Notes under the pieces: model-generated
Database searches by the model: none
Told to the model about the DNA's origin: nothing
The model's input: the letters and a program-made list of their open reading frames with translations, nothing else
Part shown: positions 11,762 to 23,877 of the stretch, piece after piece
Numbering within the stretch: position 1 is the stretch's first letter
Layout of the letters: every line of letters starts with the position of its first letter
Assembly (NCBI GenBank): GCA_965228735.1
Contig: OZ245838.1
Span: 6,912,001-6,976,000 of the forward strand
Origin: Planctomycetota bacterium
GTDB taxonomy: Bacteria; Planctomycetota; UBA1135; UBA2386
Length of the DNA: 64,000 nucleotides
Direction: 5' to 3'
Position numbers and translations under genes: made by a program

Positions 11762-13966
11762 CTACCGCAACGCCTGCAGCGCGAGCATCGCGGAAGCCGT
11801 CGTGTAGACCTCCATCCCGGGGTGGGCCCAGGCGTCGATCGCGGGCCAGTGCGCGGCGCCATCGGCCGTGATGCGGTTCGGCACGAGCGCTTCGTGCAGC
11901 GCGTTGCGCCAGCGTTCGAGCGTGACCGGTTCGATCTGCGGCGTTTCGGCCGCCGCGGCGAGCGCGATGGCCTCGGCACCGAAGTGCCAGTAGGCGAGGT
12001 CGATCGAGCCCTTGTCGGTGTGCCATTCGGGCGGCAACGCGGCCACGAGTTCGAGGCCACGCAAGTTGGTGTCCTTCTCGAGTGCGCTCTGGTCGTGAGC
12101 CGCCCGCGCCAGGAGCGTGAGGGCCGTCGGTTCCTCCGACAGCTCGCCCGGGAAGTCGGCCTTCTTGGCCACGAAGCGCGACATCGGACCGCCGCGCCTC
12201 ACGAAGCCGACCCGCCCGTTCTGCGGGTTGGTGAGCTCGTCGAGCAGCAGCATCGCGACCGTGATGCTGCGCTCTTTCGGCTCGATACCGCACTTGCTGG
12301 CGTCGCCGAGCGCGAGCAGCATCATCGACGTGATCTTGCTGTCGTTGTCGTTGTCGCGCACGCCGTAGCGCCACCCGGAGTACGGGTTCTGCGCGAAGTA
12401 GCAGTAGTCCGTCGCGAGTTCGATGCGGCTGCGGCGTTCCTCCGTCGGCCACTCCAGCTGCACCGCGGCGAGCGCGCGCAACGCGAACGCGTGGGCGTAG
12501 TGCGCGGCCATCGGGTCGTTCGGACCGATGCGGCCATTGGCCTGTTGCTGCGTCTCGAGGAACGCGGCTGCGCGCTGCACGGCTTTGGCGATCGGGAGCG
12601 GTTCCGTGCGCAGGCCGGGCAGCAGCGCGAGGATCGCCATCGCGGTAACGCAAGTCGAGTTGTGATCGCGGACGTTCTTGCCCGCCGGATCCGGGCCGAC
12701 GACCCAGCCGCCGTCTGCCTGTTGGTTCTGCAGCAGCCAGCGTGTGCCCTCCGTCAACGCCGTGCCGACCGCTTGCCGTTGCCGGGACGTCGGGTTCTTC
12801 ACCACGACCGGGGCGTCGGCTGCCGGTGCCGTGGCGGCCGCGCCGGGCCGCGGGGGGGCTTCGGATTGGGCGAGGGTGACGGTCCCGAGCAGGGTCAGGA
12901 GGAGCAGCGGTGCCGCTGCGGCGGTCAGGCGGGGCCGCGCGCGGAAGCGCGGGTCGAGAATGCGGAGCAGGCGGGTCTTCATGAACGTTCTCTCGGACAG
13001 GAGGTACGCGTGGGACAGCGCCGGCGTAGGGGTGTTGCAGGCGCGTTCGATCAGGGTGAGCAGGGAATCGGCGAGGGCGCCGCGGTCGACGTTGCTGCGC
13101 GCGAGCGCGGCCTCGTCGCAGGCGTATTCGCGCCAGCGCGCATGCAGCGCGGCGGCGAGCCAGAAGCCGGGGAAGAACCAGAAGGCGCAGCGCAGCCCCT
13201 CGATGAACGCGCCGATCGCGACGTCGTGGCGCGCCACGTGTGCGAGTTCGTGGCGCAACACGAAGTGCAGTTCGGTCCCCGCCATCGTTCTGGTGGCGTC
13301 GCTCGGCACCCACACGATCGGGCGGCGCACGCCGCTCGTGAGCGGCGACTCGAGCCCGTCGACGAAGCGTAGGTTCACGGGTCGTCGGATGCCGCTCTCG
13401 CGGACGAAGAGGCGGAACCGTGCCGCGAGCTCCGCGTCGGGTTCGCGGCTCCGGCGTTCGAGGCCGGCGATCGCCGCGCGCTGGCGGTAGATCAGGCGGA
13501 CCAACAGGCCGGACAGAGCGGCGAGCCAGATCGCCGCGAGGAGCGTGCGCCACGGCACTACGACCGGCTCGGTGCGCAGGCGTGCCGTGTCGTTCGGCTC
13601 CGGGGCACCGCCCGTCGGAGTGTCCGACTCGCCGAACGTCGGGTTGCTCGCGGTCGTGGACTCCGGCAGAGCGGGCGCCTGCGCGACGGACTCTGGTTCC
13701 GCTGCGACCCAGCTCGCGAACGGTAGCTGCAGCGTCGCCGGCGCGGGCAGCAGTCGGTCGATCGGCAGGACGAGCAGAACGAGCGGCAACAGCAGCAGGC
13801 AACTCGGCAGGTGGGCCGAACCGTGGCTGCGTCCGCGGCGGCTCGCTCGCAGGAGGCCGAGAACGAGCACGACGACGGTGAGCGCGAGCGCGCTGACGAC
13901 CATGCGCGCCGTGATCCAGTCCAGCCAGGCGTGCCCCAGCAGGTCCGCGTTCGAGGTGCCGATCAC
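11762..13966 (-). CDS. BlaR1/M56 membrane peptidase fused to a prenyltransferase/squalene-cyclase-like repeat domain
   Basis: TM helices, SPLTSGVRRPIVWVP, HELAH, REYACDE; C-terminal WLLQNQQADGGW, QNPYSGWRY, YWHFG repeats. Confidence 0.85.
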   Translation of the reverse strand: MIGTSNADLLGHAWLDWITARMVVSALALTVVVLVLGLLRASRRGRSHGSAHLPSCLLLLPLVLLVLPIDRLLPAPATLQLPFASWVAAEPESVAQAPALPESTTASNPTFGESDTPTGGAPEPNDTARLRTEPVVVPWRTLLAAIWLAALSGLLVRLIYRQRAAIAGLERRSREPDAELAARFRLFVRESGIRRPVNLRFVDGLESPLTSGVRRPIVWVPSDATRTMAGTELHFVLRHELAHVARHDVAIGAFIEGLRCAFWFFPGFWLAAALHARWREYACDEAALARSNVDRGALADSLLTLIERACNTPTPALSHAYLLSERTFMKTRLLRILDPRFRARPRLTAAAAPLLLLTLLGTVTLAQSEAPPRPGAAATAPAADAPVVVKNPTSRQRQAVGTALTEGTRWLLQNQQADGGWVVGPDPAGKNVRDHNSTCVTAMAILALLPGLRTEPLPIAKAVQRAAAFLETQQQANGRIGPNDPMAAHYAHAFALRALAAVQLEWPTEERRSRIELATDYCYFAQNPYSGWRYGVRDNDNDSKITSMMLLALGDASKCGIEPKERSITVAMLLLDELTNPQNGRVGFVRRGGPMSRFVAKKADFPGELSEEPTALTLLARAAHDQSALEKDTNLRGLELVAALPPEWHTDKGSIDLAYWHFGAEAIALAAAAETPQIEPVTLERWRNALHEALVPNRITADGAAHWPAIDAWAHPGMEVYTTASAMLALQALR

Positions 13967-14355
13967 GACTCGTCCTCCGAACGGCGGCGTTGGTCGATGA
14001 GGTCCCGCAGGGCGTCGAGGTCCTGTGGGCTGAGCTTGCTGCGCTTGACCATGTACTGCAGGAGCGGGCCGACGGTGCCCTCGACCGCGCGGTCCATGAG
14101 CTGGTCCGCGGACTCACGCAGCGCCTTGTGAATCGATCGGTTGGGGCGGTAGAGCAGCGAGTTGCCGACCGCGCGGGTCTTGAGCAGGCCCTTGTCGACG
14201 AGCCGCCGGAGCAGCGTCTTGATCGTGCTGTCGGACCAGCCGTGCCGGGCGCTCGCATCGGCGATCACGTCGCGCGCCGCGCAGCTTCGGTGCGCGAACA
14301 CGATCTTCAGGATCTTCCATTCCGCCTCGGTGGGCTGATTCGCTTCGGGTGCCAT
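13963..14355 (-). CDS. BlaI/MecI/CopY family repressor
   Basis: TEAEWKILKIV, WSDSTIKTLLRRLVDKG; overlaps the M56 start by 4 nt. Confidence 0.92.
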   Translation of the reverse strand: MAPEANQPTEAEWKILKIVFAHRSCAARDVIADASARHGWSDSTIKTLLRRLVDKGLLKTRAVGNSLLYRPNRSIHKALRESADQLMDRAVEGTVGPLLQYMVKRSKLSPQDLDALRDLIDQRRRSEDES

Positions 14356-14431: not shown

Positions 14432-17137
14432 TTATTCGCGCGCCCCGCCAGGCGAACCCGGGGCCGGGCTCGCCGGGCGGGGCGCTGCGTCCGATCGCGG
14501 TTCGGTCGCGTCACCGGCGCGGGCCAACAGGCTGTCGACGAGCTCGACCAACTCGGTGCCGGCAAACGGTTTGGGCAGGATCGCGTCGACCTCGACGGCG
14601 CCGAGTCCCGCGCGGATCGTGTCCTCGTCGTGGCCGCTCATGATCACGACCTTGAGGTCCGGCAACTGCTCGCGGAGCCGGCAAGTCAGTTGGCCGCCGT
14701 CCTGATCCGGCAGCGTCATGTCGATGACGGCGAGCACCGGCTTCGGTTCGGCCTCCTCCGATCCGCGCAGCGCTTCGCTGCCGCGGCTCGCCTCGATCAC
14801 CTCATAGCCCCGTTGCGTGAGTGACAGCCGCGTGAACGCGAGCAGCCAGTCCTGGTCGTCGACCACGAGGATCGGGCCCGATCGCCGGGCGATCGGGGGA
14901 CGCGGCATCGCCACCGGTGGCTCCGCGGCTCGATCCTGCGGCAGGTAGATCGCGAACGTGCTCTTCGTCTTGCCGTCGGCGACGAACCGGAACGCGCCGC
15001 CGAACCCCGTCGCGATCGTGCGCGCTGCGGTGAGGCCGGGGTCGGCACGGCTGGCCTCCACCCCGGTGGCGGGGTCGAAGATCCGTGGCAGGCTGGCCTC
15101 GGAGGTGCCGCCGCCGTCGTCGGTGATCTGCAGCACGGCGTACGACGGCGCCCGGCGCGGCGTGCCGAACCACGTCGCGCCCGGTCCGGTACCCGGCAGG
15201 GTTGCGACCTCGGCCAGCTCGATCACGATGCGGCGGCCGCCGGGGGGGGCGCCTCGAACGAGCCGCGCGACTTCCACGAGCAAGCGGCGGATCGCGCCGG
15301 TGTCGACGGTGGCGCGGATCGGTCGCGGCGGCAGTTCGATGCGCACGGCGACCGTCTGGTCGACCGAAGTGAGCAGCTCCTCGTGGGCCGCCGTCACGAC
15401 GTCGCGCAGGTCGACATCGTGTTCGATCGACCGGCTGCCGCAATCGCGCACGTTGGAGTAGTCGAACATGCGGGTGCACAGTTCGGCGGACTCTTCGGTC
15501 GTGGTGCGGATGCGCTCGAGGCGTTGGCGGTGGGGGTCGCCCGCCGGGATCTCATCGAGCAGCAGGTCGACCTGCGCCCGGACGGCGGCGAGTGTAGTCC
15601 CGAACTGTCGGGCCCAGCTCGCGGCCAGCGCGCGCACGCCCAGCAGGCGCTCGCGTCCCGTGTCGCCGCCGGCCTGACCGCCACTCGCACGCGACGGTTT
15701 CGTCGCTGCGGCACCTGTCGCTGCGGCCCGCACCGGTCCGTCGGCCCGGGACGAACCGGGATCGGTTGACCGTTCGACCGCCTCGGCAGGGCGTTCACGA
15801 CGCTCGCCGCGGCGGCGCCCGAAGCGGTAGGCGGCGACCGCCAAGCCGATCGCGGTCACGGTCGCGAGGCCGAGCAGGTCGCGGATCGTCCGGTTCGTCT
15901 CGTTCTTCGTGGCTGCCGTGCTCGCCGCCACGGCGTCGTCGATGAGCTGCGCGATGCGGTCGTTGCGGGTCGCGGTGCGAGCATCCCGCAGCCGACTCAG
16001 CGTTCGTCGGGCGGCATCGCGGTCGGCGTTTCGGCGGGGTGGCTCGAGCTCGGCGAGTCGGTTCGCGTGGTGCATCAGACCGGCGTCCAGTTCGCGCTGG
16101 CGGTCGAACTCGATGAGCGACCGCAACACGAGCCTCTCCAACTCGGGGCGGGCGAGCCGTTCGGCGAGGGCCATGGCTTCCTCGAGTGCCGGCTCTGCGC
16201 CGTCGGGATCGTCGAGCAGCAGATGCGTGCTCGCAGCCGCGTTCAGTGCCCGCGCCAACCGGGCGGGGCTGCCGAGCGCGCGGGCAACGTCGACGCGGCG
16301 TTCCGCGACGGCCAGGGCGCGGTCGGTATCACCCACCGCCAGCGCTGCCTCGAATCGACGGGCCAGGCAGTCGAGTACCGCCTGGCGATCGCCGAGTTCC
16401 TCGGCGGCACGCAGCACGTCGTGTCGGGCTGCCTCGGCATCGGCGTCGCGGCCCTGCCACTGCCACGCGTCGGCCTGGCGCAGTCGTGTTCGGAGCTGTC
16501 CGCGCACGTTCTGCGCAGCCGCGAAGAGTTGCGCCGCCGTGCGCAGGATCGCGTTGGGCTCGAGTCCCATCGATGTCGCTCGCAGCTGATCGTGCAGTGA
16601 CAACAGGCAGTCGCCGAGGACAGCGTCCGCGCCGGCGTCCGTTGCGAGGTCGGTCGCGCGCTCGAGGTTGAGCGCGGCGTTGCTGAGGTCGTGGTCGACG
16701 AAGCAGATCGTCGATTCGATCAAGAGCACGACCGCCCGCGTGACCACCGATGCGTCGGCTGGCAGTTCGGCCCGCGCCTGCTCCATCAGCCGTCGCCCGC
16801 GCGCCGTGCTCCCCAACTCGCAAGTCGCGGCGGCGGCCGTCGCGAGCGCGATCGCGGTCTCGCTGGCGCGACCGAGGCGTTTGGCTGCGGCCGCTGCGCG
16901 TTGTGCCGCGACGCGGGCCTTGGGCAGGTCATACGCGAGCAAGGCGCGGGCCCGCTGCAGCATCAGCTCGAGGCGCGCGTCGTCGGCCAGCGTCGGGTCG
17001 CCGAGTCGCTGTTCCGCGGCTTCGGCCACGCTGCGTTGGGCAGCGAGTGCGGTCGCGAACGTGAACGCGAGGGCCATCGCGCCCGACGCGCGGCCGCGCG
17101 CGAGCCGAACCGCGAACGGGAGGAGACGTGAGGGCAT
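14432..17137 (-). CDS. Membrane hybrid sensor: TPR-like periplasmic region, degenerate histidine-kinase module, intact receiver domain
   Basis: H-box position reads LAASWARQFGT (no His); G1-like ITDDGGG..RIFDP; receiver LVVDD, VIDMTLP, IMSG, LPKPF. Confidence 0.75.
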   Translation of the reverse strand: MPSRLLPFAVRLARGRASGAMALAFTFATALAAQRSVAEAAEQRLGDPTLADDARLELMLQRARALLAYDLPKARVAAQRAAAAAKRLGRASETAIALATAAAATCELGSTARGRRLMEQARAELPADASVVTRAVVLLIESTICFVDHDLSNAALNLERATDLATDAGADAVLGDCLLSLHDQLRATSMGLEPNAILRTAAQLFAAAQNVRGQLRTRLRQADAWQWQGRDADAEAARHDVLRAAEELGDRQAVLDCLARRFEAALAVGDTDRALAVAERRVDVARALGSPARLARALNAAASTHLLLDDPDGAEPALEEAMALAERLARPELERLVLRSLIEFDRQRELDAGLMHHANRLAELEPPRRNADRDAARRTLSRLRDARTATRNDRIAQLIDDAVAASTAATKNETNRTIRDLLGLATVTAIGLAVAAYRFGRRRGERRERPAEAVERSTDPGSSRADGPVRAAATGAAATKPSRASGGQAGGDTGRERLLGVRALAASWARQFGTTLAAVRAQVDLLLDEIPAGDPHRQRLERIRTTTEESAELCTRMFDYSNVRDCGSRSIEHDVDLRDVVTAAHEELLTSVDQTVAVRIELPPRPIRATVDTGAIRRLLVEVARLVRGAPPGGRRIVIELAEVATLPGTGPGATWFGTPRRAPSYAVLQITDDGGGTSEASLPRIFDPATGVEASRADPGLTAARTIATGFGGAFRFVADGKTKSTFAIYLPQDRAAEPPVAMPRPPIARRSGPILVVDDQDWLLAFTRLSLTQRGYEVIEASRGSEALRGSEEAEPKPVLAVIDMTLPDQDGGQLTCRLREQLPDLKVVIMSGHDEDTIRAGLGAVEVDAILPKPFAGTELVELVDSLLARAGDATEPRSDAAPRPASPAPGSPGGARE

Positions 17138-17272
17138 CCGTCGGGGCTAGGTGCCGGCGGGCTCGCACACGGCGAACACCGCGGGCGTGCATCCTACGGT
17201 CGTACCGGTCATCGCGCCCGCCACTTTAGCGAGCAACTGCGACCGGCAGTGGCCGTGGCTATATTTCGCCAG

Positions 17273-18526
17273 ATGTTGCTCGCCTCCGTCGTTCTCGCCT
17301 GCCCGCCGCAAGGACCCGGTCCATCGCTGATGCAGAGCTTCCAGCGCGGCGACTTCGGTCGCCAGCTCCGGGCGATCGTGCCCGCCGCAGATGACCGCGC
17401 GTGGCAGGCCGTGCCGTGGGGCTCCGAGTTTCGCCGCGCTCTCGTCGCCGGAGCCGAGCAGGACAAACCCGTGTTGCTCTGGGCGATGAACGGGCACCCG
17501 CTCGGCCAGACTTGAAACAACGGCGTGCGGGCCAGGCGGTCGGTCTGGACGGATCCGCACGTGCAGGAGTTGACGGCGAGGTTCGTGACGGTCGCCGACG
17601 AAGTCGGGCGACTGCAGCGTGGCAAGGACGCGGAGAGCGCGATGTTTCGCTCGTTCTGCGAAGAAGGTCATTACGGCGGTCGCTCGCGTCCGACGGGCAC
17701 GCGGCAGGGGATCTACGCCGTTGCGCCGTCGGGCCGCTTCCTGGCGTCGATCAACACGACGCAGCCGCAGCGGATGGTGAAGATGCTCGAGACGGCGCTC
17801 GCGCGTTGGGCGGAGCTCGCTCCGACAGAGCGTGCGCTCCCGCCCGACATGCGGGAGCGGCTGCTCGGCGCCGAACGATTCGAAGACCGCTACCCCGACG
17901 ACGGGCTCGTTCTCGCCGAGTACTGCCGCGACCTCGAGCCGGCCGGTGCCGAGATCCCGCAGTGGCAGGCCGGCGCATGGAACGAGGATCAGGCCTGGTT
18001 CACGGCCGCCGAAGCCAGCCGCTTCGTGCCCGAGGAACTCGCGGTCGGCGCGAGCCGCGACGTCCCGGCGCGACTCGCGAGCAGGCTCGCGCGCCTGCAC
18101 CTCCTCGACGTCGTGCGTGGGCAGACGGCCGCGTTCCGCAAGAACCACGTCGAACGCGCCGAACTTCGCAGTGTGATCACCGGCGTCACCGACGGGCGCG
18201 TCGAGTTGCGCTTGACCGGCCACACCGCGACGCGGCACCGCGGCAGATGGCGCGTGCGCGACGGCCGTTCGTACACCGAGCCGGTCGAACACGAGCGCGG
18301 CGTGCGCACGGAGCTGCGCGGCCGCGCGACGTGGGATCCGGCGGAGCGGCGCTTCACCGCGTTCGAGCTGGTCGCGCTCGGGGAACGCTGGGGCGCGACG
18401 CAGTACAACGGCCGCCCGAACGACCTCGAGCCGACCCCGATCGGGTTCGCGTTCGTGCTCGCGCCGCCAGACCACCCACGCGTCGCTCCGGCGTTCTATT
18501 GGCACTACACGCTGCGCAGCGAATAG
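17273..18526 (+). CDS. Thioredoxin-fold secreted protein, candidate selenoprotein (in-frame TGA at 17513-17515)
   Basis: ORFs 17249-17515 and 17525-18526 are in the same frame and joined by TGA-AAC-AAC-GGC. The Trx-like pattern W..EFRRAL....DKPVLLW...GQT*NN...VWTDPHVQELTARFVTV spans the TGA. A SECIS-like hairpin follows. Confidence 0.75.
17524..17561 (+). promoter_or_regulatory. Bacterial SECIS-like stem-loop
   Basis: Lower stem CGTGCGG/CCGCACG, upper stem CCAGGC/GTCTGG (one G-U), apical loop GGTCG separated from the TGA by 22 nt. Confidence 0.65.
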
Positions 18527-18562: not shown

Positions 18563-21500
18563 TCAGTCGTCGCCGCCGGTCAGTCCGGCGAGCATCTGTT
18601 GGGCGGCGTTCAGCATGCCGTGGCCGGGATGGGTGCGGCCCATGCGTTCGACCAGGCTCTCCAACAGTTCGATCGCGGCCTTCTTGTTCTCGCCGTCTGG
18701 GGTCATCGCGAGCGCGCGCGCGAGCCAGAACTCCGCATGGTAGGTCTGGAGGTTCTCCGGGCCGAGCGCGGTGTGGTTGAGCGTCGCGCCGCCCCGCAGG
18801 TGGGGGATCGCGTCGTCCGGGCGCTGCAGTCGCACGAACGTGATCCCGAGGCCGATGCGGGGCCGCGCCTGGGTCGGATGGTCCGCCGGCAGCGTGCGAC
18901 CGAACATCGCGATCGACTCCTCGAACAACGGGATCGCCTCGTCGTAGCGCCGCTGGCGTGAGATCGCGGTCGCGAGGCTCAACAGGCTGCCGGCGGTCTG
19001 GGAGTGTTCGCCGAGCTTCGCGCGCCTGGCGTCGAGCACCGCGCGAAACTCGTTCTCGGCGGCGGCGTGATTGCCGCGATCGAGTTCGCCGACGGCGACC
19101 GAGTTGCGCGCCGTCAAGACCACCGGGTGCAGCGCGTCGTAGACCGCGCTGCGGATCGCGAGCGACTCGCGATACATCGCGACGGCCTCGTCGATCCTGC
19201 CGGTCCGCCTGAGCAGGTTGGCGAAGTTGGACAGCGTCGTCGCGAGCTCGGGGTGGGCGGCGGGCAGAGCCGCGCGCTGAATCGCGAGGGCGTCGCGGAA
19301 CAGCGTTTCGGCTTCTTCGAGCTCGTCGAGCCGTCCGAGGCACGCGGCGAGCTGGCCCATCGTCAGTGCCGGATACGGGTGGTCGTCGTCGAACCGTGCG
19401 CGGTCGTGCGCGAGGATCTCGCGCAACAGCTCGATCGCGCGGTCGTCGTTGCCGTAGTCGATCTCGAGCATCGCGAGTTCGAACAGCATCGTGTCGACGT
19501 CCGGGTGATCGGGGCCGGTGAACTCGCGCGTCAGCTCGAGGGTCCGTTCGAACGCCGTGCGAGCCGACTCGAGATCCTCGAGCTCCTTGTAGGCCCGGCC
19601 GCGCTCCGTGTGCAGCATCAGGAACCGCGGGTCGTCGACCGCCGAGGCGTCCGGGGCGTCGCCGACGGCTTCTCGCTGGGTCGCTTCGAGCAACTCCGCG
19701 GCCTGCTCGGGACGGCCCCGTTCGCGCAGCACCTGCGCGCGCGTGACCGCGACGCCGAACGTCCGGTCCGTGACGTCGTTCTCCGCGGCGAGCCGCGCGG
19801 CCCGGTCGAGGAGCTGCTCGGCTTCGTCATAGCGGCCGGGCTCACGCAGCCAGGAGGCGAGCGTCGTGAGCCGGAGAACGCGCTCGAGCACCGGCGCCGG
19901 ACCGCCGCGTGCCGGAGGTTCGATCGACGCGCGGATGAGCCGTTCGCCGGCCGCGTCGTCGCCGTCGTGGAACGCCTGCACGCCGGCCCAGTACTGGGCG
20001 CGACGATGGGCCGAACCGTCGCCGGCATGCTCGCGCAGCACGCGTTCGGCTTCGGCCATGAGCGGGCGCGACGCGTCGTAGAGTCCGAGTCCGATGTAGG
20101 CCCGCGCCATCGTCATCTGCAGCTGCGCGCGCTGTGCGGGCGCCACGGTGAGGTCACGATCGATGCGGCGCGCGCCGCGGTCGAGCAGCTGGCGCGCACG
20201 CAGAGTCTCGGCGCGTTCGGGATCGGGCGACGCCATGTCGAACAGGTCGACGAGGAAGCCCGTCATCTCGTCCGCCAGGCGACGTTGCGTGATCGCGTTG
20301 TCTCGCTCCTGCGCGATCCGCTGGTTCTGTAGGAACGTCGTGATCGCGAACGCGACGACGAGGCCGAGCACGACGACCGCCGCGCCGAGCGCGATGCGAT
20401 GGCGCGCGACGAACTTCCGCGCGCGATAGCCGATGGTGTCCCCCTGGGCCGTGACCGGCAGCCCGTCGAGATAGTTGCCGAGGTCGGCGGCGAGCGCCGC
20501 GGCCGACTCGTACCGCCGTTCGGGCTCCTTGCGCATCGCGCACGCGACGATCGTGTCGAGGTCGCCGCGCAGCAGACGCGTCGAGTGCGGCGCGCTCGGG
20601 CCGCGCGTGTTCGCGATGGCGCTCGGGGGTGGGGGCGTGCGCTCGCACACGACTTCGATGAGCTGGGTCAGCGACCGGTTCTCGAGCGGCTGCGCGCGCT
20701 CTCCGGACAGCAGTTCGTAGAGCAGAGCGCCGAGCGCGTAGACGTCGGTCGCCGTCGTGATCGGTTCGCCGCGCACTTGTTCGGGGCTGCTGTACTCCGG
20801 CGTGAGCAGCATGTTGCCGGTGCGGGTGAGGGCGAGCGAGGCCTCGCCGTGCTCCTCCGGCAGCAGCAGCTTGGCGATGCCGAAGTCGAGCAACTTCGGT
20901 TCGCCGTCCGTCGACACGAGGATGTTGCTCGGCTTGAGATCGCGGTGCACGACGAGCGCGCGGTGCGCGTGCGCGACGCCGCGGCAGACCTTGATGAACA
21001 GGCGCAGCCGGTCGTGCAGCGAGAGCCGAGCTTCGCGGCAGAACGTGAGCAGGTCGGGCCCGTCGACGTACTCCATGACGACGTAGGGCTGACCGGTGTC
21101 CGTCGTGCCGCCGTCGAACAGTGCCGCGATGTTGGGATGCTGGAGGCCGGCGAGGATGCGGCGCTCGGTGCGGAAGCGGCGCTGCATCTCGCTGTCGTCG
21201 AGCGGCGCGCGCAGCAGCTTGATCGCGACGCGGTTCTTGAAGTCGCTGTCCTGCCGCTCGCAAAGGTAGACGACACCCATGCCGCCGCGGCCGAGCTCGC
21301 GCGTGACGCGGTAGCTGCCGATCTGCTCGGGCGGCGGCCCGGCGGCCTCGTTCTCGGCGTCCTGCATCGCGCCCGCGACCTCGGCCTCGCCGAACGCCTG
21401 CGCCGGCGAACCGAGCTCTTCGGGGTCGTCGTTGTGCTGCGCGAACAGCCGCCGCAGCTCCGTCGCGAGCGTCGGCGTCTCGGCCGCCAACCGCTCCAGC

Positions 21501-21619
21501 GCGGCGGCGCGGGCCGTTTCGGAGAGCGCCCGCAGCGCCTCGAACTCCGTCGCGATGCGACCGAAGTCGAGTTCCCCGCTATGCTTCGTGGGGCGTCCGG
21601 GCGTGGCGTCGTCGTTCAT
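18563..21619 (-). CDS. Serine/threonine protein kinase with TM helix and TPR repeats
   Basis: LGRGGMGVVY, VAIK, HRDLKPSN, DFG, TPEYSSPEQ, DVYALG; kinesin-light-chain-like TPRs (HPELATTLSN). Confidence 0.95.
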   Translation of the reverse strand: MNDDATPGRPTKHSGELDFGRIATEFEALRALSETARAAALERLAAETPTLATELRRLFAQHNDDPEELGSPAQAFGEAEVAGAMQDAENEAAGPPPEQIGSYRVTRELGRGGMGVVYLCERQDSDFKNRVAIKLLRAPLDDSEMQRRFRTERRILAGLQHPNIAALFDGGTTDTGQPYVVMEYVDGPDLLTFCREARLSLHDRLRLFIKVCRGVAHAHRALVVHRDLKPSNILVSTDGEPKLLDFGIAKLLLPEEHGEASLALTRTGNMLLTPEYSSPEQVRGEPITTATDVYALGALLYELLSGERAQPLENRSLTQLIEVVCERTPPPPSAIANTRGPSAPHSTRLLRGDLDTIVACAMRKEPERRYESAAALAADLGNYLDGLPVTAQGDTIGYRARKFVARHRIALGAAVVVLGLVVAFAITTFLQNQRIAQERDNAITQRRLADEMTGFLVDLFDMASPDPERAETLRARQLLDRGARRIDRDLTVAPAQRAQLQMTMARAYIGLGLYDASRPLMAEAERVLREHAGDGSAHRRAQYWAGVQAFHDGDDAAGERLIRASIEPPARGGPAPVLERVLRLTTLASWLREPGRYDEAEQLLDRAARLAAENDVTDRTFGVAVTRAQVLRERGRPEQAAELLEATQREAVGDAPDASAVDDPRFLMLHTERGRAYKELEDLESARTAFERTLELTREFTGPDHPDVDTMLFELAMLEIDYGNDDRAIELLREILAHDRARFDDDHPYPALTMGQLAACLGRLDELEEAETLFRDALAIQRAALPAAHPELATTLSNFANLLRRTGRIDEAVAMYRESLAIRSAVYDALHPVVLTARNSVAVGELDRGNHAAAENEFRAVLDARRAKLGEHSQTAGSLLSLATAISRQRRYDEAIPLFEESIAMFGRTLPADHPTQARPRIGLGITFVRLQRPDDAIPHLRGGATLNHTALGPENLQTYHAEFWLARALAMTPDGENKKAAIELLESLVERMGRTHPGHGMLNAAQQMLAGLTGGDD

Positions 21620-22190
21620 GTCAAGCGATCGCGAGTCGTTCACCGAGATGCTGCAGCGCCACCGCGGCGGCGAGGACGTCGCCCTCGGCGCGTTCCTGCC
21701 CGCGGTCTACGACGAACTGCGCGGCCTCGCCCGGCAGCAGCTGCAGCGCGAGGCCAAGGCGGCGCTCGAGCCGACTGCGCTCGTGCACGAAGTCTACCTC
21801 CGGCTCGTGGATCAGCGGCTCGCAGGGGTGGCGGATCGAACGCATTTTCGGCGGCTCTGTGCGCGGGTCATGCGGCAGGTCCTCGTGGACCAGGCCCGCA
21901 AACGCGATGCGCAGAAACGCGGTGGCGACCGCGAAGAAACCCTCAAAACCTGGCTCGAACCCGCGGCCCCCGATGCCGCGGGCGGCGGCCTGCCCGTGCT
22001 CGCGCTCGACGAGGCCCTCGAACGCCTCACCGCGCTCGATGAACGCAAGGCCCAGGTCGTCGAGCTGCGCTGCTTCGGCGGCCTGTCGATGGCCGAGGTC
22101 GCGGCCGCGCTCGAGGTGTCGCTGCGCACGATCGAGGCGGATTGGTACTTCGCCCGCGCCTGGCTCAAGGCCGAGCTCGCGCCGGAGTAG
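21618..22190 (+). CDS. ECF sigma factor, kinase-associated (TIGR02999-like)
   Basis: VYDELRGLA, LEPTALVHEVYLRL, MRQVLVDQARKR.AQKRGG, VVELRCFGGLS..EVA. Confidence 0.92.
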   Translation: MSSDRESFTEMLQRHRGGEDVALGAFLPAVYDELRGLARQQLQREAKAALEPTALVHEVYLRLVDQRLAGVADRTHFRRLCARVMRQVLVDQARKRDAQKRGGDREETLKTWLEPAAPDAAGGGLPVLALDEALERLTALDERKAQVVELRCFGGLSMAEVAAALEVSLRTIEADWYFARAWLKAELAPE

Positions 22191-22256: not shown

Positions 22257-22332
22257 TACCCCGTGGTGTAATTGGTAGCACATCTGGTTTTGGTCCAGTC
22301 GGTTCCTGGTTCGAGTCCAGGCGGGGTAACCA
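22257..22332 (+). tRNA. tRNA-Gln (TTG)
   Basis: Acceptor TACCCCG/CGGGGTA, anticodon arm CTGG-TTTTGGT-CCAG, T arm CCTGG-TTCGAGT-CCAGG, encoded CCA. Confidence 0.95.
22288..22332 (+). repeat. attL core (3' 45 bp of tRNA-Gln)
   Basis: TTTTGGTCCAGTCGGTTCCTGGTTCGAGTCCAGGCGGGGTAACCA, identical to 30568-30612. Confidence 0.95.
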
Positions 22333-22411: not shown

Positions 22412-22436
22412 GTGTCCAGCCATTTGTGTCCAGCCA
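22412..22436 (+). repeat. Putative integrase arm-type sites (2 x GTGTCCAGCCA)
   Basis: Direct repeats at 22412-22422 and 22426-22436; the same 11-mer occurs inverted at 30403-30413 and 28534-28544. Confidence 0.7.
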
Positions 22437-22455
22437 GAGCACCGGAGGCTTCCCG

Positions 22456-23877
22456 ATGCCGTCCAGCAGTCGCCGCACCAAGCGGTCCAAGTTCCATCCC
22501 CGCACGCCGCAGTTGCGCCGCCACAGTCGCGGCCGCGCGATCGTCACCTTGTCCGGTGAGACCCACTTCCTCGGCGCGTGGCCACCTGACGCGGCGGCCC
22601 ACCGCGCGTACGCGGAGCTCCTCGAGCAGTGGGAGGCGAACGGCCGGCAGCCCATCAAGTCCGTCGTGGAGACGTGCGCGAGTGCTCAGCGCGACGCGGA
22701 ACGGCTCGCCGAGCGGTTGGGCGTGACCGTTGACCAGGCGGAGCGGGTGCGCGTGCTGGCGATCGAGATGAGCCTGAGCCACGCCGAGGCGCTGGCGCTC
22801 GCGCGCGTGCGGCACGTCGACCTGTTCGAGCCGCAGGAGCCGGTCGCCTCGGTGCGGGACGCGCTCGCGGACTACGAGGCGCACATCGACGGCATCGGCA
22901 AGTACACCAAGGGCGGCGCGCGGACGACGGAGCGGTCACTTATCGACCGAGTCGTCCGCGAGTTCGTCGAGCAGTACGGCGACGTGCCCGTGAGCGAGCT
23001 CGGCAAGCGCCACCTGGTCGGCTACCGCCGCTGGCTCGAGGTGGACAACCCGCACTTGACGGTGAGCGGCATCCGCAGGAAGACCGCGACCATCAAGCGC
23101 GCCCTGGCGTGGCTCTACGAGGGCGAGGTGCTGACGCCCGAGCAGTGGCTCGCCGTCGACTCCGTGCGGCAGCTTCGGCGCAGCGACCTCCCCGAGCGCG
23201 ACGTGCGCAAGCCGAAGCGCGAGGTGACGCTCGAGGAGGCCGAGGCCGTCGCCGAGAATGCCGGGCGGGTCATCGGGGCGATGGTGCTCACGCAAGCGTT
23301 GACGGCGTGCCGGCCTGGCGAGGTGGTCGCGATGAAGCACGGCGACATCGACCGCACGCCGGTCGTCGGCCCTGACGGCGTGAGCTACTGGACGTGGCAC
23401 CTGCGCACGCACAAGACCTCGCACCACGACCCCGAGGCTCGGACCATTCCGCTCGGACCGCGGGCGCAGCAGATTCTCGGCCAGTTCCGCGGCTTCGGCG
23501 CCGCGTTCGTGTTCCAGCCGCGCGACATGGTCGCCGACCGTCGCCGTGAGCAGCGCGAGCGCCGGAAGACTCCCGTGCAGCCGAGCCAGCAGGCACGCGA
23601 CAGAAGGCCGAAGCGCCCCGTTGCCGCGCAGTTCGACACCGACCTCTACAACCGATGCGTGCTGCGAGCCATCGCGCGCACGAAGGGCGTGGCGAGGTTC
23701 ACGGTCCACCAGCTTCGGCACGGCGCGTTGTCGCGCATCGCACGGACCGAGGGTCCGCTCGCGGCGCAGGCCATCGCAGGGCACAAGCACCTGACGACGA
23801 CGCAGGGCTACGTGCACCACGCACGCGACGACGCATTGCGTGCGGCGGCGTGCCTGGACGGCGCGCAGGTCGGCTAG
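22456..23877 (+). CDS. Tyrosine recombinase/integrase
   Basis: GGAGG RBS; N-terminal arm-binding-like GRAIVTLSGETHFLG; catalytic R (CRPGE), K (THKT), HQLRH, AGH, Y (TTQGY). Confidence 0.93.
   Translation: MPSSSRRTKRSKFHPRTPQLRRHSRGRAIVTLSGETHFLGAWPPDAAAHRAYAELLEQWEANGRQPIKSVVETCASAQRDAERLAERLGVTVDQAERVRVLAIEMSLSHAEALALARVRHVDLFEPQEPVASVRDALADYEAHIDGIGKYTKGGARTTERSLIDRVVREFVEQYGDVPVSELGKRHLVGYRRWLEVDNPHLTVSGIRRKTATIKRALAWLYEGEVLTPEQWLAVDSVRQLRRSDLPERDVRKPKREVTLEEAEAVAENAGRVIGAMVLTQALTACRPGEVVAMKHGDIDRTPVVGPDGVSYWTWHLRTHKTSHHDPEARTIPLGPRAQQILGQFRGFGAAFVFQPRDMVADRRREQRERRKTPVQPSQQARDRRPKRPVAAQFDTDLYNRCVLRAIARTKGVARFTVHQLRHGALSRIARTEGPLAAQAIAGHKHLTTTQGYVHHARDDALRAAACLDGAQVG

Follow-up and report, generated by a model that had tools for sequence, protein, structure and literature searches.

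A TGA-interrupted thioredoxin-fold gene in a Planctomycetota genome, very probably encoding a selenoprotein of an uncatalogued family

The locus and its genome

The window analysed here is a stretch of 64,000 nucleotides from a Planctomycetota genome. It contains two forward-strand open reading frames, one of 88 aa that starts at GTG 17249 and one of 333 aa that starts at GTG 17525, 10 nt past a TGA codon. The two lie in the same frame, and translation from ATG 17273 through the TGA, which is codon 81 and is followed by AAC AAC GGC, gives a single product of 417 aa terminating at TAG 18524-18526 (Table 1). An earlier note on this DNA had described the frame, the TGA, the split ORFs and the single read-through protein, and its coordinates were reproduced from the sequence. 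The same note had pointed to the missing ribosome-binding site of the second ORF, which is weak evidence because the first ATG likewise lacks a Shine-Dalgarno sequence. A full sigma-70 promoter was not found upstream of the gene, and a leaderless transcript read from the TATATT hexamer is possible. The contigs of all four public runs (4/4) had no other letter at the TGA site, two of them covering the whole stretch and possibly being its source, and the codon is not an assembly error.

Table 1. Positions of the gene, its features and related genes (first seven rows, positions in the window; last two rows, positions of the TGA codons in contig G000:C1)
Feature	Position	Strand	Remark
Predicted single gene, TGA read as Sec	17273..18526	+	417 aa; alternative start GTG 17249
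TATATT, -10-like hexamer	17260..17265	+	7 nt upstream of ATG
Short hydrophobic N-terminus, probable signal peptide	17273..17302	+	hydrophobic 9-mer in family
Thioredoxin-fold domain, approximately residues 39-185, DsbD-gamma/AGR2/Thioredoxin_7-like	17387..17827	+	model and structural match
In-frame TGA, predicted Sec81, context GHPLGQT-U-NNG	17513-17515	+	first-Cys (nucleophile) column of thioredoxin motif
Predicted bacterial SECIS	17523..17562	+	conserved upper stem 17532-17537/17543-17548, loop GGUCG 17538-17542
C-terminal beta-rich domain, no catalogued family	17894..18523	+	model, profile alignment
Three paralogs	3484699, 4855623, 7087946	+, -, -	same layout as window gene
Other Thioredoxin_7-like genes, TGA at attacking-Cys column (L210-L214)	2546238, 5497385, 3235945, 6694255, 4985410	+, +, +, -, -	

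The neighbouring genes at 14432-17137 (-), 18563-21643 (-), 21432-22190 (+) and 11762-14355 (-), which we take to be a receiver-bearing hybrid sensor, a TPR-containing Ser/Thr kinase next to an ECF sigma factor, and a BlaI/BlaR1-like pair, were not conserved next to homologs of the gene. No conserved gene neighbour of the family was detected, the largest cluster (15 loci) consisting of generic ABC ATPases in varying places. Further downstream, a tRNA-Gln gene (22257-22332) precedes an integrase-like ORF and small genes of mobile-element type (22426-23877; labelled by reading the sequence), which together are probably an integrated element.

The host genome encodes the complete set of selenocysteine genes that the earlier note had proposed to look for: selA (454 bits), selB (337) and selD (367), each above the curated cut-off, along with tRNA-SeC(tca). 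The selD gene itself carries an in-frame TGA. Each of the three paralogs in this genome has one TGA in the context GHPLGCT-U-(N/G)NG, with the same two-domain layout and a C-T-U motif. Among the five other Thioredoxin_7-like genes with a TGA, L210 has a C-U motif and is the most similar to selenoprotein N (SelN; SELENON/SEPN1 in animals), and L213 has a VPGU motif; none of L210, L211 and L212 reached an NCBIfam cut-off.

The two-tier hairpin following the TGA was found exactly as the earlier note had drawn it, with arms CGTGCGG/CCGCACG and CCAGGC/GTCTGG and the loop GGTCG 22 nt past the TGA. The bacterial SECIS model given in the Fig. 2 legend of PMC13188914 has a loop of 3-9 nt, an upper stem of 4-16 bp, a distance of 16-37 nt from the UGA, an MFE of -7.5 or lower, and G at loop position one or two; the same paper describes the base after this G as G or U. 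The window hairpin lies within the ranges of that legend (5-nt loop GGUCG, 6-bp upper stem, 22 nt, -23.8 kcal/mol). Its folding was unremarkable by itself, with z of -0.57, -1.22, -1.38 and -2.15 against shuffles in four windows. Moreover, in this genome of 69% GC there are 2938 TGAs in any frame with at least 80 open codons before and at least 330 after, and 704 of these satisfied a loose SECIS pattern, so the local combination of TGA and hairpin is no better than chance. The support for selenocysteine comes from comparison with homologs, not from the local hairpin.

Conservation of the TGA codon and of silent positions behind it

A total of 169 loci were gathered, from genome searches, from 80 metagenome loci matching a pattern located upstream of the codon, and from 20 hand-chosen regions, six of them taken for showing no stop. 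Matches were obtained in 161 of the 169, corresponding to 157 distinct loci; the remaining eight were five from sel-gene searches, one spurious locus and two views of one 5'-truncated copy. The column of the predicted Sec was occupied by TGA in 151 of the 157 distinct loci, and by Ser (three), Cys, Asp and Val (one each) in the others, with neither TAA/TAG nor a Trp codon at any of the 157. The protein was conserved on both sides of the UGA. In unsplit proteins of the wider superfamily, 158 of the 169 stretches aligned had Cys in this column. The existence of Ser, Asp and Val forms shows that the scaffold can persist without redox chemistry. A Ser-form subfamily (L152-L154) was represented by two loci in genomes where selA was not found and one next to a TGA paralog. 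Another locus (L150, G312:C321) has two copies of the two-domain unit, each terminal in a very long ORF; the Sec column holds TGA in one copy and Asp in the other.

A strong match (E<1e-10) was present in 103 of the 301 Planctomycetota genomes sampled. The selA gene was detected in 100 of these 103 genomes versus 127 of the 198 others, counts in which related genomes are not independent, and the three matching genomes without selA had Ser forms (G150, G270) or a copy minus its 5' part (G172). Database searches found 263 homologs, and 119 of the 120 listed, the window's own protein among them, began at or after residue 85, the same place at which the window gene is split. Gene callers split the gene, as the earlier note had expected. 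The named homologs among those listed were mostly from Planctomycetota, with one from Armatimonadetes.

The silent positions behind the TGA were compared in 118 non-redundant TGA loci. Codon +7 encoded Arg in all 118, with AGA used in 31 versus 70 of the 3690 Arg codons in the rest of the genes, and CGC in 6 versus 1946 of 3690. The third base of codon +8 was G in 109 loci when 52 were expected, and third positions of codons +6, +8 and +10 were off expectation with z of 7 to 12. The hairpin occurs in two registers divided by the residue at +8, mostly with loops N-G-U-N-N; these registers were picked after viewing the data (seven axes shown). Such loops agree with the SECIS model of PMC13188914. 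In register 1 (loop at nt 25-29, 92 loci), the pairs were kept in 81, 87, 45 and 86 of 92 loci versus 39, 51, 6 and 50 expected under synonymous recoding, and in register 2 (loop at nt 21-25, 26 loci) pairs were kept at 77% versus 18%. Four of the six non-TGA homologs keep Arg at +7, and all four use CGC. The loose SECIS test was passed by 97 of 118 loci versus 47 by chance, with four of the six non-TGA homologs passing too. Window folding energy hardly separated the post-TGA region (mean z -0.58) from one upstream window (-0.49) in 60 loci. By this comparison, a predicted bacterial SECIS constrains the silent positions just past the TGA.

These observations bear on three other explanations of the split frame. 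The TGA could be a genuine stop between two coupled genes, or between a short secreted peptide and a separate protein, as the database entries for the 3' half and the GTG shortly behind the TGA in the window copy might suggest. The constant identity of the stop argues against this, as do the lack of a conserved restart codon (a start codon lies within 8 codons past the TGA in only 61 of 149 loci), the existence of fused Cys and Ser forms, the co-occurrence of TGA forms with selA, and the fact that the cut would divide one fold; we consider such an arrangement very improbable. Decoding of the TGA as Trp or Cys, through an altered code or leaky reading, could draw on P0043, a database protein of full length in which Trp occupies the Sec column. 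That entry is itself probably a gene call made under a code with TGA as Trp. In addition, TGA also terminates genes of the family, such as paralog L004, no tRNA with a tca anticodon was found apart from the long tRNA-SeC, and no DNA locus had a Trp codon, which makes Trp or Cys insertion highly unlikely as well. A pseudogene or a sequencing artefact is the third explanation, and some homologs are broken (G020, G023, G172). This notion is refuted by the conservation of the TGA, which is shared by the three host paralogs and found in 151 loci, and the public runs showed no variant; its probability is negligible.

We are therefore highly confident, from sequence comparison, that the two ORFs are one frame whose TGA is read as Sec. 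The earlier note's reading of a hidden selenoprotein is supported by the homologs, the decoding machinery and the public runs alike.

Predicted fold, export and function

An AlphaFold model built from 26 sequences (pLDDT 92.5, pTM 0.92) predicted a thioredoxin domain followed by a large beta-rich domain. The thioredoxin domain matched 3f9u_B with Z 12.9 and an rmsd of 2.9 over 122 aligned residues, and the best Foldseek match of the model had an E of 1.4e-3. Sec81 is placed directly ahead of the active-site helix, and the TGA cuts the thioredoxin fold mid-way. In alignments the Sec falls on the first Cys of CxxC proteins, and Gly is at +3 (U-x-x-G). The model thus agrees with the earlier proposal of a thioredoxin fold having the TGA at its redox motif. 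Pfam and NCBIfam scans gave no family over the cut-off, Thioredoxin_7 being the best at E 0.0034 among 26 members, and a PDB sequence search with the window protein or the family alignment A1 returned nothing meaningful. For the beta domain alone, a single-sequence model was poor (pLDDT 43.7) and gave no Foldseek match, which leaves the domain unplaced and does not make it a new fold. An atlas search with this part alone hit only unnamed bacterial clusters.

Upstream of the domain, 119 of the 141 family loci had a hydrophobic 9-mer, compared with a single one of 140 control stretches, and the window protein is predicted to be exported. The missing neighbouring Cys (GQTU), which the earlier note had taken as a trait of the protein, holds for the window copy and not for the family: Cys occurs at -2 in 85 of 110 members, at -1 in 8 and at neither position in 17. 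The GQTU form was seen in 7 of 157 loci, most relatives having C-T-U. A second Cys, Cys122, tends to accompany Cys79 (53/85, versus 6/25 without Cys79), and the window copy has neither.

In bacteria, SelB binds the G-U of the hairpin loop and delivers Sec-tRNA. We infer that SelB acts likewise on the G-U loop of this gene and delivers Sec-tRNA at the TGA. Sec81 would then occupy the place of the attacking Cys of thioredoxins, followed by N-N-G in lieu of a resolving Cys, and may attack a periplasmic or surface protein, bound by the beta domain, at a disulfide or an oxidised thiol. In most family members the Cys at -2 would resolve the resulting mixed selenenyl-sulfide, and in the GQTU window copy an outside thiol or a partner would do so. 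On the predicted structure and the alignments, the product is likely an exported two-domain thiol oxidoreductase with a single selenol; for a specific role as reductase or isomerase we see an even chance.

If Sec is inserted, the protein might instead scavenge peroxide or reactive sulfur, or act as a metal-binding sensor, rather than reduce or isomerise protein thiols. The canonical resolving Cys is absent, the Cys at -2 is dispensable, as the members with Cys at neither position indicate, and the gene stands alone with no redox partner nearby, all of which fit such a role. On the other hand, the nearest structural matches are to DsbD-gamma, AGR, DsbH and ERp19-type proteins rather than to peroxiredoxins, and the large conserved second domain suggests a macromolecular partner. 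We regard a scavenger or sensor as possible, with more doubt than belief.

Relation to selenoprotein N and comparison with known systems

A natural Cys-form homolog gave as its top atlas match a eukaryotic 'Selenoprotein N' cluster (0.91, 196/256 features), a score range in which 0.9 was also reached by 4-10 of 100 shuffled proteins. A broader profile showed that thioredoxin domains bearing a TGA form a large superfamily in Planctomycetota. Individual genomes had up to 30 matches (G325 30, G244 17, G144 16), and tandem arrays were seen at L203 and L207. The SelN order, a long N-terminal region and then D-x-(S/A)-C-U-(G/P)-S-G, was present in 3 of 40 regions examined. Six planctomycete loci (L250, L260, L273, L287, L288, L291) have the SelN order and C-U-(G/P)-S-G, and their hairpins contain the same unusual Arg +7 codons. 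JGI gives the label 'selenoprotein N' to two database relatives (P0332, P0335), and two named relatives are from Ca. Poribacteria. A degenerate DNA pattern for C-U-G-S-G-R was also run over 401 genomes, and all 30 loci examined were chance matches.

Alignment by hhalign of the thioredoxin domains of the window family and six bacterial SelN-order sequences reached 98.2% with Sec and Arg +7 in register, a match that does not imply specificity for SelN. The C-terminal domain of the family aligned with the N-terminal region of the SelN-order proteins at 64-73% (E 3e-5 to 6e-5, colinear over 139-173 columns). The scores of 37.6-39.6 compare with maxima of 20.8 in 20 block shuffles and 25.4 in another 25, and with 14.6 and 18.2 for reversed sequences; with one sequence alone the alignment reached 3.6%. 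In a quick tree of 44 rows, which missed two intended rows and left deep branches unresolved, the SelN-order proteins formed their own branch (100) apart from the window family. From the domain alignments and the separate branch, the window family likely shares both SelN domains in swapped order, as compared with bacterial SelN-order proteins only, and it is not a SelN ortholog. The beta domain, called uncharacterised in the earlier note, does lack a catalogued family; the note missed this likely relation. Animal SelN was encountered neither by word search nor in the profile search, in which the best 150 of 8890 matches all had the domain near the N-terminus.

We tentatively propose, at slightly less than even confidence for the whole, that the window family is a domain-swapped sister of SelN within a very large uncatalogued planctomycete radiation, with TGA in most matches, that animal SelN and its UGA hairpin originated from a bacterial gene of this kind and the SECIS it carries, and that the soluble bacterial proteins offer a tractable model for SelN chemistry. 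If the relation in reversed order is true, a small soluble protein would be at hand for the chemistry of a human muscle-disease protein whose function a 2026 review calls enigmatic (PMC12936836), with natural Sec, Cys and Ser variants, and variants with and without flanking Cys, to draw on.

The family is found in about one-third of the Planctomycetota genomes sampled, yet it is absent from the catalogues checked. Standard selenoprotein searches rely on Cys orthologs. These are almost absent here and gene callers split the gene, which makes the family invisible in the catalogues checked; together with its relatives it would substantially enlarge planctomycete selenoproteomes. Table 1 of the 2026 review, covering 119 families (PMC13188914), lists no SelN-like or GHPLG-type family; the families of Haft and Tolstoy 2025 were compared through this table and NCBIfam. 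Three candidates in Table S9 of PMC4807772, one hypothetical and two thioredoxin-like, are given there with no sequence and may overlap with the wider superfamily. Nothing on bacterial SelN homologs or the window family appeared in the openly available literature searched, including passages of PMC12013277, PMC13326102 and PMC7539508. No family-related term matched in the BSepDB supplement, a null without weight as even 'thioredoxin-like' gave no match.

The nearest models are the VPGUxxT family (NF041383/NF041382) and the Trx7/PDZ selenoprotein (NF041199), which have in common with the window protein a Thioredoxin_7-like domain, Sec at the attacking position, a SECIS right after the UGA and decoding by SelA/B/C/D. 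The window family differs from them in its motif GHPLG-x-T-U-N-N-G, the lack of Cys or Thr at +3, the extra beta domain and the near absence of Cys orthologs. The window protein had no NCBIfam match at E<=1, and its relatives scored at best approximately 26 bits when the cut-off is 275, which places them outside NF041383 and NF041199 (scan of 22 reference sequences; L213 and L214, being out of frame, were excluded). Proteins of the DsbD-gamma/AGR2/DsbH/DUF255 type (3f9u, 3ph9, 2lst, 3ira, 2ju5) share the fold at Z 9.9-12.9; they use Cys (CxxC or CxxS) and are 13-19% identical to the window protein.

Like the window family, bacterial SelN-order proteins have a thioredoxin domain with Sec at the homologous position. 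In SelN, however, the Sec domain lies at the C-terminal end, human Sec462 being placed behind a long N-terminal region (PMC8967691), whereas in the window protein the thioredoxin domain comes before the beta domain and Sec is residue 81 of 417. The SelN motif, given as SCUG in PMC8584023 and PMC12839072, contrasts with Q-T-U-N in the window protein; SCUG is absent, and Cys directly before Sec is confined to the few relatives counted above. SelN has a membrane anchor in place of the probable cleaved signal of the window family, and Pfam scans found no EF-hand in the window protein or the family. In the SelN mRNA, too, a hairpin immediately follows the UGA, and PMC12936836 likens it to a bacterial SECIS. 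Taken together, the locus holds a real and very probably Sec-recoded gene of an uncatalogued family, in which a known decoding mechanism is combined with a new architecture.
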